Source: Escherichia phage vB_EcoM_phAPEC6 | Length of the DNA: 64,000 bases | Direction: 5' to 3' (one strand) | Sequence record: MK817115.1 | Shown: positions 3,008 to 56,815 of the stretch, piece after piece | Layout: each line of letters opens with the position of its first letter | How positions within the stretch are numbered: position 1 is the stretch's first letter | Notes under the pieces: generated by a model | Databases searched by the model: none | The model's input: only the letters and a program-made list of their open reading frames with translations | What the model was told of the DNA's origin: nothing | Program-made: the position numbers and the translations under genes

Positions 3008-3592
3008 CTATTTCAGTACTTTAGTCAATGCTTTCACAGCGGTTTCGAGTTGAGCATAGTCGTTAATTGTAAGGTAATGAATACCATGTGCATTCATTTC
3101 AGCATCTATTTTATTATATAAATCAAACATGTCAAGGATATGATTGTATGCATATGAAGTATTTGAAACACACAATTCTTGGAACAAACGTTCTTCCAAG
3201 TCATTCACAACTTCTCCATGAATATCAAGTACTACACCATCTTTGTAAGTGTAGTACTCTTCACTCCACTCTTCAGAAAGTCGGAACAGTAACGGATTCC
3301 CGCCGAACACTTCCATGTCATAGGAATTTATCTCACTAAGTAGTGTTTCACCTGGTTCTGGTGTGAAGTCAAAATATGCGAGTGTTGTACCATCATAGTC
3401 CTTGAGTGATATACCAGTATGATTTAAGGTTACTTCACCATAATTATTATTCTTGAACTTGATTTTGATATTAATCTCAATGTATTTTATTGTCTCATCA
3501 TCACTGAAATTGTAATCAATTTTATACTTTTTCCAAAGAAGTTTGATATCTTTGAAGTACTTTAATTTACTTTCAATTTCTTTAAAGTCCAT
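3008..3592 (-). CDS. family A-like paralog
   Basis: ORF track 194 aa; motif EERLFQELCVSN. Confidence 0.6.
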   Translation of the reverse strand: MDFKEIESKLKYFKDIKLLWKKYKIDYNFSDDETIKYIEINIKIKFKNNNYGEVTLNHTGISLKDYDGTTLAYFDFTPEPGETLLSEINSYDMEVFGGNPLLFRLSEEWSEEYYTYKDGVVLDIHGEVVNDLEERLFQELCVSNTSYAYNHILDMFDLYNKIDAEMNAHGIHYLTINDYAQLETAVKALTKVLK

Positions 3593-4793: not shown

Positions 4794-5375
4794 TTAATCC
4801 ATCATAAGTGGGATAATTGCCCATATCTTTTTCATAATCATATCTTCAGTAAAAACAAATGTTTTAGGAGCAGTATATGATATTGACACACCAAATGGAA
4901 GTTTGATTGCATCATCAATTATATTATGAATATCAAACCATGTTTTAACATAATCATACGGTGGAAGTTCATGAATTGTACTTAACTGAAAGTAATTCTC
5001 TTCACCAAAATCACTATATTCAATTTCACAAATTTTAGTGAATTGATGATTCCATTTAGATATAATACTATTTTTATTATTGTACATAGTAGTTCTATGC
5101 ATAAAACCATTTTTGCTAGTATGATTTGATATTACGTTTTCTTCAATGTCAGTATCTATTTTAAAATTCATATCAAAGTTGTAGTACGGACTTGACGATT
5201 CTTTGAATTTTAAATGTAAATTGCGATTGTTATTAATTTCAATTTCAATACAAAACACATCTGAATCAAAACGATTAAACTTGTAATCGTTATCTTCCGG
5301 TAGATTCTGTATTTTTTTCATAATACTAAGCATAGGGTGTACTACACTTTTAATAAAATCATTTGTTATTTTCAT
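4794..5375 (-). CDS. family A paralog
   Basis: ORF track 193 aa; motif EENYFQLSTIHE. Confidence 0.7.
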   Translation of the reverse strand: MKITNDFIKSVVHPMLSIMKKIQNLPEDNDYKFNRFDSDVFCIEIEINNNRNLHLKFKESSSPYYNFDMNFKIDTDIEENVISNHTSKNGFMHRTTMYNNKNSIISKWNHQFTKICEIEYSDFGEENYFQLSTIHELPPYDYVKTWFDIHNIIDDAIKLPFGVSISYTAPKTFVFTEDMIMKKIWAIIPLMMD

Positions 5376-9167: not shown

Positions 9168-9706
9168 AATTCAACCCCCAATATTTTATCAGCAATTGAT
9201 ATAACCTTATCATTGAATACATTACCAATCTCAATCCTTATATACATAGCAGGTGGAATCTTTCCTTGTAGTGAATAATATGTTTGTATACCTAAGTACT
9301 CATTATCTGATAATGAAAATTTGATTCTCTCCATATCAATGTCTGTTACTGGTAAATCAATCATTTCATAATGGTAGTCAACGTTTTCAGTGTATATTTT
9401 ATCGAAGTAATTTGAATAATCACTACTAATATAGATGCTATCATCACGAATAATCACTTTATAATCAGAAGGTTCAAATTTATCTTTAGAAGAAAAGAAT
9501 GCATCATCTATCTTCTCTTCTCTTATACCGAATAACATTTTACCATCATATTTTACATCAAGAATACTACCTAGTATATTAATGGTACAATGCTCATCAA
9601 TATTATGACGTAAAGAACGAGTCTTGTATTTTGGGTTAATGAAAATTTTCATTAATTTTATACAAATGTCAGTAATGCATTTTACATTCTCATTTTCTAT
9701 GTACAT
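9164..9706 (-). CDS. hypothetical protein (180 aa)
   Basis: ORF track; no family motif. Confidence 0.6.
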   Translation of the reverse strand: MYIENENVKCITDICIKLMKIFINPKYKTRSLRHNIDEHCTINILGSILDVKYDGKMLFGIREEKIDDAFFSSKDKFEPSDYKVIIRDDSIYISSDYSNYFDKIYTENVDYHYEMIDLPVTDIDMERIKFSLSDNEYLGIQTYYSLQGKIPPAMYIRIEIGNVFNDKVISIADKILGVEL

Positions 9707-10193
9707 TAAAAGCCCTCTTTAATTCTTTTACATTTTTAATGAATACTTTCATTGCAGAAATCTCAAAAGATAATGTATTAAATTTGCAGTACTTTTTAAA
9801 GTACGACATTATGAATAACATTTTGAGTTCTTTTTCTGTATAAATTAAACTGTTTTGAAAGTAACTTTCTTCGGAAATGTCCGTAAGAAAAGAATAAAAT
9901 GTATTTTGCTTGTGCACAATTTTAATACTATCAGACCAAGATTTGTATGAAACGTAATCAGTACGTGCAAAATCATATAGTGAATTAGATGTATCTGTGT
10001 ATGTTTCCGAGAACACAATCTTATATATCTTATCTTGAATTCGAGAACATATGTACCTATGGTCATCTGTCTCACTGATTGCAATGTATCTATGGAGTAA
10101 ATCTTTATGAGCATTGATGAACTCAAACACTTCTAAACACTCCTTAGCGAACTTCATAGTTTCTCTGTACTTTCGGTTCATTAGTCTCTCCAA
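9690..10193 (-). CDS. family A paralog
   Basis: ORF track 167 aa; motif EESYFQNSLIYT. Confidence 0.7.
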   Translation of the reverse strand: MERLMNRKYRETMKFAKECLEVFEFINAHKDLLHRYIAISETDDHRYICSRIQDKIYKIVFSETYTDTSNSLYDFARTDYVSYKSWSDSIKIVHKQNTFYSFLTDISEESYFQNSLIYTEKELKMLFIMSYFKKYCKFNTLSFEISAMKVFIKNVKELKRAFNVHRK

Positions 10194-35627: not shown

Positions 35628-35846
35628 ATTTTATACGATTCATATAAAAAGTCAATAACATTTTATTCGTAATACCCCTTTATCGAAGTCGCTAAGGTTA
35701 CCCGCCCTTTAGCCCCCTACGCATTTTGCCATAGTCCAATCCCTTTTATTTCAAAAAAGTCAAGGGATTACCTATGCATTTTTTTAACGCATAATTTTAA
35801 AAACGCCTTGACTTTTTTCTGAATCAGTACTAGATCCCTTTACGCA
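35628..35846 (-). promoter_or_regulatory. regulatory region upstream of family B array (promoter-like TTGACT-N16-TAAAAT plus inverted and direct repeats)
   Basis: minus-strand TTGACT..TAAAAT about 40 nt upstream of array start; inverted repeat AATCCCTT..AAGGGATT; repeated cctttacgcatt-like motif three times. Confidence 0.4.
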
Positions 35847-53671: not shown

Positions 53672-54034
53672 TTATTCGTAAATTTTGCCACTGTCAGCCC
53701 ATACCAGGAAACGAGGCATATTATCCCATGCATCTTGTTTTAAATTTAAACCGTGTAATACTTCTGTACTTTCCATTCCTGGTACTGGTTTACTATACAC
53801 CGCAAATAGTTCACCCATATACTGATAAGCCATCGTTAAATCACTGGCGATCATCTTATGGATCATCGCATCAAGCATCACGGTAGCGGCGTATTGTTCA
53901 CGCTTAAGCGGTAACATTGCAATAAGTTCCCGATAAGCTGAAATGTGAATTTTTACCGTTTCAGCCGGAAGACCTTTCATCTCTTCACGGAAGTTAACCA
54001 GGTTAGCAATAATTTTATTGATTTGAGTCGCCAT
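53672..54034 (-). CDS. hypothetical protein (~120 aa)
   Basis: ORF track 53672..54091; start moved to MATQINKI Met downstream of hairpin AGCGGGAAgtgtTCCCGCT. Confidence 0.55.
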   Translation of the reverse strand: MATQINKIIANLVNFREEMKGLPAETVKIHISAYRELIAMLPLKREQYAATVMLDAMIHKMIASDLTMAYQYMGELFAVYSKPVPGMESTEVLHGLNLKQDAWDNMPRFLVWADSGKIYE

Positions 54035-54148
54035 CGTTTTCATCTCTCTTACAGTGTAGCGGGAAGTGTTCCCGCTCTCGATGTAAAACATTATACGCTT
54101 TTAAACATAGTTTGCAAGTACTTTCTACATGTACTTTTAAAATAGTTT

Positions 54149-54235
54149 TCTTTCTATATAGGAGTACTATTATTCAGTACTGCAACCATCCAGGGGAACT
54201 ATCTTTCTATATAGTAGTACTATTATTCAGTACTG
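54149..54235. repeat. direct repeat, two ~34-bp copies
   Basis: tctttctatataggagtactattattcagtactg at 54149-54182 and near-identical copy at 54202-54235. Confidence 0.7.
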
Positions 54236-54397
54236 AATCAATCAACCAAATCACTACTACACCCCGTAAAACGGCCTCAGACGCATTCTAACGCATTAAT
54301 ACACCCAAGCTATACATTTGCACCATTCCAATCATTCCAGGGCTTTACGGGCCGTTTAAACGCGTTAAATTATTTTCAATTATTTTGTTTTTAGGTA

Positions 54398-54425
54398 TTG
54401 ACTCAGTACAGAAAAAGCGTATAAT
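54398..54425 (+). promoter_or_regulatory. plus-strand sigma70-like promoter
   Basis: TTGACT-N16-TATAAT on plus. Confidence 0.4.
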
Positions 54426-54612
54426 TACTATATAGACGCGAGAAAGCGGAAACCCCAGAGGGTGCGGAATTACGCCCAAAATTCAAGATATAAAAAAAGG
54501 ATACACTCCCGCACCCTAGCAGGTAAACGCACTTTCTCAGTACTGAAATATAGTACCATAGTCCGGCCCAGGATAGCAAGCAAATTAATTAAAACTTTTT
54601 TCATCCAGGGTA

Positions 54613-54640
54613 TTGCTTTATTTTTCCAGTACTGTATAAT
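54613..54640 (+). promoter_or_regulatory. plus-strand sigma70-like promoter
   Basis: TTGCTT-N16-TATAAT on plus, followed by CCCACCGGGTG motif. Confidence 0.4.
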
Positions 54641-54860
54641 AGTTCCATCAAGTCGAGAAAGACTCAAGCCCACCGGGTGCATAGTTACGCCCAAAATTCA
54701 GTACTAGATTATTTTTTAAAAATATTCATCCAGGCGGTTGACATTGCCCCCAGTTTATAAGATAATGATTCCAGATTCAGAAAAATCTAACTCCAGATAC
54801 TGCGGGGAAACTATCCCCACGCGGTAGGGGAACTATTGGAAAAAACAAAATAAAATTTTG

Positions 54861-55000
54861 ATTTAGCCGTCTATACTTCCAGACGTGTAACCATCTAGCC
54901 GTTTAGCCGTCCAAACGTCTAGCCATCCAGCCCTCCAGAAATCTAGCCGTTTAGCCGTCTAGATGGATAGCCATCTTTACTTCCAGACTTCTGGAGGGCT
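54861..55000. repeat. iteron-like cluster of short direct repeats with flanking inverted repeat
   Basis: TAGCCGT occurs at least five times and TAGCCAT twice within ~110 bp; inverted repeat GCCCTCCAGAA ... TTCTGGAGGGC; direct repeat ACTTCCAGAC x2. Confidence 0.6.
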
Positions 55001-55860
55001 AGACATATCTACGTCCAAAATCCACCCAGGGTAACTACGCCCAAAATCCGTCAGTACTATACCATAGATCTATCTTTTGAAAGGGAGTATTCAGTACTGC
55101 CATCATAGCCCTCACTATGTTACCCTAGGAGGATGAAGACTATCATGTAGTACTGAATACTGTTAGAGGGAATCCACCAGCACAAGCTGGTGGCATAATG
55201 CTTTAGATTAAAATCAGTACTGACACCATTCTGTTAATATCAGTACTGTTATTACGATTTTCATATGAGGTTCAAAAAGATGTACCACCACAGGAGGAAC
55301 TATCTTTTCTGTACTGTCTCACGACAGGAGGTAGAGTAAATGAATTGTTCGCAGCAACTCATCACCCTATGTAGAACATTATACAGTACTGAATCATAAT
55401 GTCAATAGCTTTCTTTCATTATTCAGTACTGATATTCTTGAGAACTACCCGACTACAAACATCATTATATCCCACAAATCATAAACGTCCCAACGTAAAT
55501 TTCAACTTTCGAAGATCCAACTTTTATTTCATAGGTACTCCAAAATTTTTAGGATCGAGATTTAGGATGGAGTACTAACCAACTTTTTGCTGGAGCCTCA
55601 AGGGGTAATGGAATTTTACCCCGAAGGGTAAAGGGGTAATTGAAATTAAGGTGAAAGTAATAATTCAGTACTAATCATTGCGTGATTACTTTTGATTACA
55701 TTTGATGTAATTTGAAAAATGGAAAAGGAGCTTGGAAACTACAAAGTACGGCAGACTTCCTCTGCCTACTTAGTGGCATATCAGTACTGAATCCTTCCCG
55801 TGCATTCTTGAGCATTCTTGTCTATACTAATCAGTACTGAATCATATATAATCATTCTGT

Positions 55861-55920
55861 GATTCTACGGTGCTCATATAAATGTTTATATATGATTACT
55901 TATGACTACCTATGATTACG
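55861..55920. repeat. tandem TGATTAC-type short repeats
   Basis: tatgattac / tatgactac / tatgattac in tandem; further gattac copies near 55680-55720. Confidence 0.5.
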
Positions 55921-56033
55921 GGGTTTAGCCTGGGGAGAATCCTAGTGATCGCATTTGTCCAGGCTGAATTTTAACAATTCGCCTGTACATAAAGGTTGTT
56001 CACTAGGAGCTTCCCCTGTCTCTATGTGTTTAA

Positions 56034-56225
56034 TTACTTTCTATATATAAGCATTAAGATATAGTAGTACTGATTATACTGTACATTCTCTTTAATATTA
56101 TAAGGGTCTATAGCAATCTCGGTACATCTGTTAAATGCATATCTATTAAATGCCAGTGGAATTATAGATCTAATCCATACTTGTTCATTTTCTTTTAGTT
56201 TACTTATATAGAAGTTTTTATACAT
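56034..56225 (-). CDS. family C paralog (small protein, N-term M.KEFY, C-term LIxRY)
   Basis: ORF track 63 aa; MYKNFYISKL...ILMLIYRK. Confidence 0.6.
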   Translation of the reverse strand: MYKNFYISKLKENEQVWIRSIIPLAFNRYAFNRCTEIAIDPYNIKENVQYNQYYYILMLIYRK

Positions 56226-56240
56226 AGTATTCTCTATTAA

Positions 56241-56423
56241 TTAATATGATAGTACTAGTGTTAGTACTGAGCACAATTGTTCTTTATAGTTCTTAGGGTA
56301 TATAGAATCTTTTATGCACTCATTGAAGTGCCATAGGTATAATCTTGGGTCGCATTCTTTATATATTCTTACGGGGACGAATGTTAGTTTTCTTATATAG
56401 AATTCTTTATGTTCTTTATTCAT
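56241..56423 (-). CDS. family C paralog
   Basis: ORF track 60 aa; MNKEHKEFYIRKL... Confidence 0.6.
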   Translation of the reverse strand: MNKEHKEFYIRKLTFVPVRIYKECDPRLYLWHFNECIKDSIYPKNYKEQLCSVLTLVLSY

Positions 56424-56424
56424 A

Positions 56425-56613
56425 TTAGTACCTGAATATAAGTAGGATTATGTTATAGTACTGGTTAGTACTGCAATGATTCTCTATACATCGATTAACA
56501 GTTATGGAATAGCTATATCTGGCGTAAGCATTATCCAGCGGGATTTTACATTGAGCACTTAGAGAAAGTACAGTAGGTAGTGTATTCAAATAGAAGTCTT
56601 TGTAATTATTCAT
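56425..56613 (-). CDS. family C paralog
   Basis: ORF track 62 aa; MNNYKDFYLNTL...IILLIFRY. Confidence 0.6.
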   Translation of the reverse strand: MNNYKDFYLNTLPTVLSLSAQCKIPLDNAYARYSYSITVNRCIENHCSTNQYYNIILLIFRY

Positions 56614-56815
56614 ACAGGAATAGTATACCTATGATACCTGAGTACAGGTTAGTACTGTTACCATCTTCGTTTGCGTTTAAAGTCATTTGAATACAATTAT
56701 TGTAGCATACTCTGCCGAAAAATGTATTAGTACTTAAAGGTGGAGTAGTCCTTAGAAACATTTGTTCTGAGGGGCTTATGTATTTGGAGTAGAATTCTTT
56801 ATGTTCTTTATTCAT
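56606..56815 (-). CDS. family C paralog
   Basis: ORF track 69 aa; MNKEHKEFYSKYIS...GILFLYE. Confidence 0.6.
   Translation of the reverse strand: MNKEHKEFYSKYISPSEQMFLRTTPPLSTNTFFGRVCYNNCIQMTLNANEDGNSTNLYSGIIGILFLYE

Follow-up and report, generated by a model that had tools for sequence, protein, structure and literature searches.

The locus examined here raises the question of what fills a 1.9-kb tract that appears to hold no gene. It lies at positions 54035-56033 of a 64,000-nt stretch of Escherichia phage vB_EcoM_phAPEC6 (sequence record MK817115.1; this whole stretch is called the window below), which comes from an Asteriusvirus jumbo phage of the PBECO4/121Q/G17 group. An earlier reading of the letters, here called the original prediction, had offered a replication origin with iterons, a packaging site and a cluster of regulatory RNAs as options. 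Our analysis points to a probable answer, which we hold with good though incomplete confidence: the tract would be the non-coding, cis-acting end of the Asteriusvirus direct terminal repeat (DTR), which is ~20 kb long, and would serve as an end platform with predicted sites for host proteins, not as a classical origin.

The packaged DNA ends within this region, at 55770/55771 (the slash marks the cut). In the linear 370,817-bp record of phage G17, the first and last 20,668 bp are identical, and the right end of this repeat corresponds to 55770/55771 of the window (...GGCAGACTTCCTCTGCCTACT / TAGTGGCATATCAGTACTG), while its left end corresponds to 35694/35695. The records of CRJP21, ELP-22, E9.1, fEgEco12, BF17 and vB_Ec-M-J start at the same nucleotide in reverse orientation, and seven independently deposited genomes (G17 and these six, from other laboratories) hence put the DNA end at exactly this position, which was assigned in phAPEC6 by homology to these related records. 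The same sequence is also the inner border of the left repeat copy. From the seven record ends and the G17 duplication it follows that the region consists of the last 1.7 kb of a ~20-kb repeat plus 263 nt beyond it:

35695-55770, no strand: direct terminal repeat, 20,076 bp, present as a single collapsed copy in this assembly; small genes in leftward orientation lie in it, as does every one of the 11 Chi sites found in the window
54035-56033, no strand: the whole non-coding terminal region, in which 54035-55770 is the final 1.7 kb of the DTR and 55771-56033 is unique DNA (263 nt) beyond it

The packaging-site option was thus borne out, as the physical end maps inside the region. That the region borders a 20-kb terminal repeat is a key fact absent from the original prediction. 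That the genus has a terminal repeat, and where it lies, was already published: the ends of fEgEco12 were mapped by PhageTerm and restriction digests (repeat of 20,993 bp), the repeat of Sharanji was found by PhageTerm to be 20,668 bp, and that of G17 was inferred from read coverage; in a different genus, PhageTerm gave a 19,736-bp repeat for Klebsiella phage fENko-Kae01. The fEgEco12 and Sharanji papers make no mention of promoters or non-coding DNA. The far border, 35694/35695, lies in a 220-nt intergenic gap, and its cut context, GCTA/AGG, is common to fENko-Kae01, as is the downstream CATAGTCCAATC block.

We found the region to be truly non-coding, as had been predicted. Upon searching with the 1.9-kb sequence, we obtained matches in 37 phage records at 80-98% identity, all of them PBECO4/121Q/G17-like jumbo coliphages of ~350 kb (the classification as Asteriusvirus is that of the records opened among the 37). 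The flanking gene takes a 120-aa form (53672-54034) in the annotation of the relatives, which sets the start of the non-coding span at 54035. Within 54035-56033, every open reading frame (ORF) of at least 19 aa is broken by stops, frameshifts or loss of the start in 2-11 of 11 relatives despite ~90-98% DNA identity, and it is because all ORFs are broken at such identity that we consider the region devoid of genes. A scan of the window for tRNAs and tmRNAs returned none; Rfam gave no match in the window at gathering thresholds and only chance-level matches (E at least 0.23) when the region was searched in E-value mode. Among the 11 relatives, identity is 0.9-1.0 inside the repeat versus 0.62-0.81 just beyond the cut. 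Only short blocks align with other genera at the nucleotide level, yet collinear blocks are kept in two of these:

54366-54497: block of the P1 unit, 80% identical in fENko-Kae01 and 87% in XbC2
54709-54844: block of the P3 unit, 68% identical in fENko-Kae01
54810-54991: block of the octamer array, 80% identical in XbC2
55172-55222: block of the Chi pair, 81% identical in fENko-Kae01
55534-55576: block of the 43-nt element, 93% identical in five Munch-group records and also found in XbC2 and Erwinia phage pEa_SNUABM_12

The array block contains the repeats that had been taken for iterons:

54865-55008, no strand: phased array of 18 octamers (the TAGCCGT iterons of the original prediction), 15 of which pass the single-box threshold of the MetJ matrix

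The predicted TAGCCGT/TAGCCAT cluster and its flanking inverted repeat are both there, with seven copies of TAGCC[GA]T at a strict 8-bp spacing (54864-54968) and inverted arms at 54926-54961 and 54968-55003. Their iteron nature was not upheld: the 8-bp period differs from the 17-22 bp of Rep iterons, and the units fit the met-box matrix of MetJ far beyond chance. Read in the frame AGNCNTCT, the octamers resemble the met-box AGACGTCT, and scoring by the weight matrix published for half-boxes and by its own thresholds (PMC3228920; at least 3.15 bits for a single box and 12.58 bits for a site) yielded, from 54865 onward, eight consecutive boxes (59.1 bits), one weak box and then five more (37.9 bits). 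For comparison, 20 simulated sequences of 64 kb reached no more than 3 boxes and 21 bits, and a random octamer passes the single-box threshold with p = 0.015. The scoring was checked on the metJ/metB and metF operators of E. coli K-12, which it recovered with four boxes each (31.2 and 24.9 bits), and these scores indicate that the phage boxes equal natural operators in per-box quality while the array is 3-4 times longer. The fit was also specific, with none of 20,000 randomised palindromic matrices of the same information content equalling the MetJ matrix on the array, and with 8, 0 and 1 of 20,000 doing so on three other phage arrays.

Searching with the array alone by BLAST gave matches in 82 phage records. 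The groups that bear it are Asteriusvirus, Eneladusvirus (phages of Erwinia, Serratia and Yersinia) and Mimasvirus (GAP32, XbC2), as well as T5-like Demerecviridae of Vibrio, Aeromonas and Providencia (15 boxes and 112 bits in Pontus, 16 boxes and 139 bits in AhSzw-1) and the ~42-kb phages PGT2, phiKT and KPV811, PGT2 being a member of the Autographiviridae; across Pontus, AhSzw-1, PGT2, XbC2 and EJP2, the arrays comprise 9-16 boxes. The distance from array to DNA end is ~770-900 nt in Asteriusvirus, ~670-800 nt in pEa_SNUABM_12 and 40-114 nt in the Escherichia podophage PGT2, a T7-like phage whose 9-box array occupies nt 40-114 of its exact 260-bp terminal repeat. In Pontus (1-800), the array sits between repeats that match the reverse complement of the T5 DRD repeat and a cluster of DnaA boxes and palindromes; in AhSzw-1 (3100-3400), in the A2 region, a Fur-like palindrome and a DnaA box come after it. 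Such an arrangement is reminiscent of the T5 injection-stop region.

Met-box arrays are missing from fENko-Kae01/Munch and T5, in which the corresponding slot holds clusters of Fur-box-like sites (3-5 mismatches to the 19-mer consensus) at ~30-40 per kb versus a background of ~1. Such sites were located at 9650-9720 in T5 (the injection-stop region), at 5330-5355 and 5071 in fENko-Kae01, at 3258 in AhSzw-1 and at 2062 in pEa_SNUABM_12; none occurs within the phAPEC6 region. We suggest that the slot provides sites for an abundant host repressor, which is predicted to be MetJ in phAPEC6. MetJ is confined to the Enterobacterales, Pasteurellales, Vibrionales, Aeromonadales and Alteromonadales, and the hosts of the array-bearing phages all belong to MetJ-bearing orders except that of XbC2. 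No phage-encoded MetJ homologue was found in 50,697 records. The array does not overlap a promoter of the methionine regulon: it lies ~90 nt downstream of the P3 start site and no gene follows it. XbC2 is labelled a Xanthomonas phage, its genus is typified by Cronobacter phage GAP32, and it carries the E. coli Chi octamer, the met-box-like array and sigma-70 promoters of the enterobacterial type; the stated host may not be its natural one.

A second element of the terminal region would be directed at a host enzyme, RecBCD. The perfect hairpin that had been noted in the original prediction is present, ~4 nt from the proposed position (55178-55197), and consists of the exact E. coli Chi octamer on both strands:

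55174-55193, both strands: back-to-back Chi pair CCACCAGC-acaa-GCTGGTGG, with GCTGGTGG on the minus strand at 55174-55181 and on the plus strand at 55186-55193

The window has 11 Chi octamers, every one of them in the repeat: nine on the minus strand (37056, 37278, 38857, 40272, 42656, 43572, 44702, 48689 and 55174) and two on the plus strand (48751 and 55186), and the other 44 kb contain none. This number compares with 0.37 expected in the repeat (p ~3e-13) and makes Chi its sixth most over-represented octamer, after CAGTACTG-type and -10-box words only; the flanks of the 11 sites are mutually unrelated. According to the rule that relates Chi orientation to RecBCD entry (PMC12315714), the plus-strand Chi at 55186 faces an enzyme arriving from the end at 55770, 577 nt away, and the nine minus-strand sites are oriented towards the end at 35695 and begin 1.36 kb from it. 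G17 shows the same Chi distribution, and the pair itself is conserved in fENko-Kae01, Munch and ph0011. As Chi sites are known to cluster near the ends of phage P1 and of LLS-type lambdoid phages, the Chi-rich repeat represents a new example of a known strategy.

The region also holds promoters, structured leaders and further repeats:

54090-54117, minus strand: sigma-70-like promoter TTGCAA-16-TATAAT with AGTACT before it, serving the first gene of the repeat (53672-54034)
54149-54190 and 54202-54243, minus strand: two 42-nt direct repeats, 53 bp apart and 90% identical
54398-54530, plus strand: P1 unit, with promoter TTGACT-16-TATAAT (54398-54425) and then a structured leader
54613-54720, plus strand: P2 unit, with promoter TTGCTT-16-TATAAT (54613-54640) and then a paralogue of the P1 leader, 72% identical to P1
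54738-54864, plus strand: P3 unit, with promoter TTGACA-17-GATAAT (54738-54766) and then a leader
55010-55049, plus strand: two further copies of TACG(C/T)CCAAAATCC, the other two being in the P1 and P2 leaders (54471, 54686)
55378-55405, minus strand: perfect-consensus sigma-70 promoter TTGACA-16-TATAAT (12/12), pointing inward, 365-392 nt from the end

The multiple promoters of the original prediction proved no more numerous than expected by chance (13 versus 11.5 +/- 3.6 in shuffles), but the best sites are strong (12/12 and 11/12), and P1 and P3 recur in conserved form in other genera, as do the 60-100 nt that follow each. A perfect promoter near the end may likewise have a counterpart, as reading by eye located a similarly placed TTGACA-17-CATAAT ~300 nt from the end of fENko-Kae01. 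The direct repeat had been given as 34 bp and is longer, 42 nt; each copy carries AGTACT palindromes and what reads as a leftward CAGTACTGAATAAT promoter-like box. The AAAGTACTTGCA architecture of the promoter at 54090-54117 is also found at promoters of XbC2.

The leaders that follow P1 and P3 have covarying stems. The P1 unit is 80-87% identical in other genera and has a fold z of -3.35; its leader forms a CGC-GAGAAA-GCG hairpin and a long stem, GGGTGCGG/CCGCACCC, which closes a variable loop. The P1 stem covaries (CG in five sequences, GC in three). As for the loop, Asteriusvirus, XbC2 and the relatives of XbC2 have ACGCCCAAAATTC there; Eneladusvirus and fENko-Kae01 have a Fur-box-like palindrome. 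An alignment of P1/P2 sequences showed compensatory double changes in 7 of 14 pairs, the closing stem changing to GGGTGGCAAG/CTTGCCACCC. In the P2 leader, hairpin 1 is kept by a double change (GTC-GAGAAA-GAC) and is followed by ACGCCCAAAATTC and a T-run; the P2 fold taken alone is not significant (z = -1.27). The P3 leader, with a fold z of -3.28, has a covarying hairpin at 54800-54824, a box rich in G (CGCGGTAGGGGAAC) and an A/T-rich tract that continues into the octamer array. An alignment of nine P3 sequences from ~5 clades showed compensatory double changes in 10 of 18 predicted pairs, with at least six stem sequences for the main hairpin, and P3 always runs into the repressor-site array ~40 nt past its hairpin. 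The regulatory-RNA option is plausible: P1 and P3 are conserved with compensatory changes, and P2 is a P1 paralogue within the window. Scanning IMG/VR with the P1 core gave 114 loci, of which seven are true homologues and the rest chance matches. In PA5oct, a distant relative, the genes of the repeat are early and transcribed by host RNA polymerase, and two abundant non-coding RNAs lie inside the repeat; by analogy, short structured transcripts are likely in the phAPEC6 region.

Two sequence motifs recur around these units. The four motif copies reported originally were recovered, ACG(C/T)CCAAAAT(T/C)C at 54472, 54687, 55011 and 55037, all on the plus strand; extended by one letter to TACG(C/T)CCAAAAT(T/C)C (54471, 54686, 55010 and 55036), the motif occurs nowhere else in the 64 kb, similar sequences exist in XbC2 and fENko-Kae01, and a search of the window for a complementary target found none. 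The palindrome AGTACT and the octamer CAGTACTG, the latter the most over-represented of the whole repeat, abut the promoter boxes in the examples inspected (CAGTACTGTATAAT; AAAGTACTTGCA/TTGACA), and words of this kind are over-represented. AGTACT/CAGTACTG also accounts for many of the repeats noted in the region. We rejected them as a region-specific feature, since they are a motif of the whole repeat: the window contains 270 copies of AGTACT and 58 of CAGTACTG, with a similar density through 36-60 kb and none at 22-28 kb. They may serve a phage regulator as operator or belong to an early-promoter signature.

Close to the cut, a further series of elements was found:

55534-55576, no strand: 43-nt element GGTACTCCAAAATTTTTAGGATCGAGATTTAGGATGGAGTACT, conserved across genera, a candidate site for terminase or end recognition
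55602-55641, no strand: GGGGTAA(T) repeats with a hairpin, GGGGTAAT at 55602 and 55633
55683-55716, no strand: TGATTAC repeats (55683, 55693) with the palindrome ATTACAT/ATGTAAT, inward of the cut
55744-55771, no strand: terminal palindrome AAGTACGGCAGA-CTTCC-TCTGCCTACTT, fold z = -4.6
55927-56021, minus strand: inverted repeat located shortly after the stop codon of leftward gene 56034-56225, by its position probably the terminator of the unique-region gene array

The 43-nt element is 93% identical in Munch, 7t3, SE_PL, PHA46 and fENko-Kae01 and 82% identical in XbC2, and in Munch and fENko-Kae01 its distance from the start of the record is 86-128 nt. Both repeat families that the original prediction had listed here were confirmed, the GGGGTAAT pair at ~55600-55650 and the tandem TGATTAC, whose outer copies at 55893 and 55913 (55893-55919) lie beyond the cut. 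An inverted look-alike of the former, TACCCCTTTA, occurs at 35673-35682, 13-22 nt outside the other border, a match between borders that is not significant alone (E ~0.9). The terminal palindrome is, like the 43-nt element, conserved in other genera; the cut falls one nt inside its 3' edge, and the records of fENko-Kae01 and Salmonella phage Munch likewise end at the 3' edge of a hairpin.

From these elements we propose how the region might work, a scheme read from the sequence. The region would act like repeat region 3, the injection stop, of T5, as a place where host DNA-binding proteins and RNA polymerase meet incoming or concatemeric DNA, unlike an iteron origin. The 43-nt element, the GGGGTAA and TGATTAC repeats and the palindrome would be where terminase recognises and cuts concatemers. 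P1, P2 and P3 would be host-RNA-polymerase promoters that fire towards the end and produce short structured RNAs, and the 8-bp array would be a landing pad for many MetJ dimers loaded with S-adenosylmethionine (SAM), resulting in a nucleoprotein block near the end and just downstream of P3. Such a block could serve as a pause or ratchet in DNA entry, as a cofactor in end processing or for the titration of MetJ. RecBCD, in turn, would degrade inward from either end until it meets Chi and would then load RecA on a 3' tail; as this tail is homologous to the other repeat copy, the outcome would be recombination (circularisation, concatemers or recombination-dependent replication) and not degradation.

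We weighed four other explanations against this one. That unrecognised small protein genes fill the region is highly improbable: some GenBank records do annotate 6-8 hypothetical proteins of 30-70 aa there, but the disruption of each ORF in the relatives, the empty annotation of the region in the curated records PBECO4, 121Q and G17 and the indifference of the cross-genus conservation blocks to reading frames all speak against it. The pipeline annotation of JP4, ELP-22, E9.1, the SD-series and WPEC3/5 places 3-8 spurious "hypothetical protein" genes in the region, which is a lesson for annotation in that such ORFs now fill it in several GenBank records. Two tandem 19-codon mini-ORFs (55280-55399) with good Shine-Dalgarno sequences, the first stop abutting the second start, are broken by indels in 3-4 of 11 relatives and are probably not coding. 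A replication origin gained no specific support, the GC-skew minimum being the only origin-like signal and an ambiguous one. The GC-skew analysis suggested in the original prediction places the cumulative minimum at ~55-56 kb, with a sign change although the genes on both sides are on the minus strand; the change may stem from the odd array of 60-aa paralogues at 56-60 kb, whose gene content confounds the minimum, and it also coincides with the repeat border. The skew turns positive at ~56 kb, and genes stay on the minus strand until ~60 kb; at 56034-56815, the four tandem paralogues scanned (~60-70 aa) all belong to phrog_11711, and similar small ORFs continue to ~58 kb. In a transcription-primed origin, the G-rich segment CGCGGTAGGGGAAC of the P3 RNA would form an R-loop at the 27-nt A/T tract at 54836-54864, with an initiator or accessory protein on the array and a start near the border. 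The origins of T4 and T7 are such promoter-plus-unwinding-element devices, the order of promoter, G-cluster, A/T tract and repeats is kept in at least four genera, and the equivalent region of T5 has DnaA boxes and has been compared to oriC. We nevertheless consider this origin quite improbable, as there is no DnaA box (TTATCCACA with at most 1 mismatch) within 54035-56033, the ten flanking genes scanned yielded no Rep-type gene, initiator or other informative match (only families of unknown function), the 8-bp period fits a repressor matrix and not 17-22-bp iterons, the predicted hairpin is a Chi pair, and a like array lies inside the 260-bp terminal repeat of T7-like PGT2, an improbable place for an origin.

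The two other alternatives take up part of the same evidence. The locus could mainly encode small RNAs, with the P1, P2 and P3 units as regulatory RNAs, ACGCCCAAAAUUC as a seed against host or phage mRNAs and the DNA repeats as secondary; we see this as a possible reading that we would bet against. It draws on the strength and cross-genus conservation of the P1 and P3 promoters, on the compensatory changes and fold z of ~-3.3 in both, on the abundant non-coding RNAs of the PA5oct terminal repeat and on the absence of an Rfam match, which would make this a new RNA family. Yet no clear intrinsic terminator was found behind P1 or P3, the window holds no complementary motif target, the swap of the P1 loop between genera (ACGCCCAAAATTC versus a Fur-box-like palindrome) fits a site at the DNA level better, and the RNAs would cover at most ~400 of the 2000 nt, leaving the terminus, Chi pair and array unexplained. 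Alternatively, the array might be a decoy: with two copies in each genome, multiplied further by replication, it would titrate MetJ away and relieve the repression of methionine and SAM synthesis in the host for the benefit of the phage, its position at the end being incidental. Boxes of operator quality in an array 3-4 times longer, the lack of any met-regulon gene or overlapping promoter to repress and the match of hosts to the distribution of MetJ are all consistent with this idea. We deem it unlikely, however, because wherever ends are defined (Asteriusvirus, pEa_SNUABM_12, PGT2) the array lies in or next to the terminal repeat, and the AhSzw-1 array lies beside DnaA boxes in the A2 region, both of which indicate an end-linked role, and because the Fur-box-like sites in the same slot of fENko-Kae01 suggest that any abundant host repressor suffices, independent of methionine metabolism.

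The reading of the region as a terminal platform has points against it as well. The roles of terminase, RecBCD and MetJ are all read from sequence. The two repeat borders have no significant motif in common, with only 10-12-nt matches between 35695 and 55770 (E at least 0.06, mostly ubiquitous AGTACT words), and the cut site as well as the distance from the 43-nt element to the end vary between genera (194 nt versus 85 nt). The strand bias of Chi coincides with the coding strand of the repeat genes, and the leader covariation rests on about five clades. As to the array, the octamer found most often in it, AGCCGTCT, departs from the met-box consensus at box position 3 (C instead of A), and affinity could be low; another binder with an 8-bp period could occupy it, for example a phage ribbon-helix-helix protein that is unrecognisable by sequence; the arrays of different phages may share ancestry through horizontal transfer and would then not be fully independent evidence; and fENko-Kae01 and Munch lack an array, which shows that it is not indispensable for the clade. 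Finally, a tblastn search of the window with T5 dmp, A1 and A2 gave nothing below E = 0.4, and a two-step DNA entry of the T5 kind would be an analogy only.

Taking the phages together, we tentatively raise a broader idea, which we consider rather unlikely as it stands: in three unrelated lineages that package with exact terminal repeats (RaK2/121Q-like jumbo phages, T5-like Demerecviridae and a T7-like podophage) and carry long phased repressor-site arrays in the repeat or close to it, an abundant, cofactor-loaded host repressor would be a structural part of the genome end, with MetJ boxes in most and Fur-box-like sites in the slot of T5 and fENko-Kae01. The repressor at the end might act as a clamp, ratchet or brake in DNA entry, as at the T5 injection stop, or as a cofactor in concatemer cutting, and, if so, entry or packaging would be tied to the SAM or iron status of the host. 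The MetJ-type super-array, the back-to-back Chi pair in a Chi-holding repeat and the conserved promoter-leader units appear to be undescribed in the literature searched. Should host proteins bind here, mutable DNA sites together with host mutants in metJ, recBCD and fur would become available for three questions: how a large linear phage genome, once in the cell, survives and becomes circular, how DNA transfer stops and restarts in T5-type phages (open since the 1960s) and how terminases locate the borders of long exact repeats.

The region combines features of several known systems. Like the iteron origins of plasmids and phages, it has clustered direct repeats beside an A/T-rich tract and a promoter, but it differs in its 8-bp rather than 17-22-bp period and in having no DnaA boxes and no Rep gene among the ten scanned. 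With MetJ operators it has in common the strict 8-bp tandem phasing, the palindromic box and per-box scores in the range of metJ/metB and metF; in contrast to these, the phage array has 15-18 boxes instead of the four of each control operator, stands away from any met-gene promoter and usually has C rather than A at position 3. The Chi sites resemble those of phage P1 and LLS-type phages in their strong over-representation, their clustering in or near the terminal redundancy and their orientation towards RecBCD arriving from the end, whereas phAPEC6, a virulent jumbo phage, has 20-kb repeats that are exact and not permuted, and two of its Chi sites stand back-to-back in a 20-nt palindrome at 577-596 nt from the end. 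In T7, the short repeat arrays SRL and SRR lie beside the terminal repeat and the promoter phiOR fires towards the end. The T7 concatemer junction, or pac, thus resembles the phAPEC6 region in its short-repeat arrays beside a terminal repeat and in having promoters aimed at the end (here ~0.7-1.4 kb upstream of the cut), while the phAPEC6 promoters are of the host sigma-70 type, not for a phage RNA polymerase, and the repeat unit differs; T7-like PGT2 has a met-box-like array inside its own 260-bp repeat.

The closest parallel is found in T5, whose repeat region 3, the injection stop, is a 1662-bp non-coding tract with direct and inverted repeats; it lies across the inner end of the left repeat, extends 270 bp past it, is better conserved than the neighbouring genes and carries boxes for a host protein, DnaA. 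By sequence, the phAPEC6 region is not a member of the T5 family: it shows no homology to T5, lacks DnaA boxes and Fur-like boxes, and belongs to a repeat that is twice as long. What the two have in common is a ~1.7-2-kb non-coding tract across the border of a long repeat with early, host-transcribed genes, an overrun past the repeat of ~270 bp in T5 and 263 bp in phAPEC6, and clusters of host-protein sites, predicted ones in phAPEC6. The T5-like phages of Vibrio and Aeromonas connect both types, as they carry the same met-box-like array beside DnaA boxes and, in Pontus, DRD-like repeats as well.

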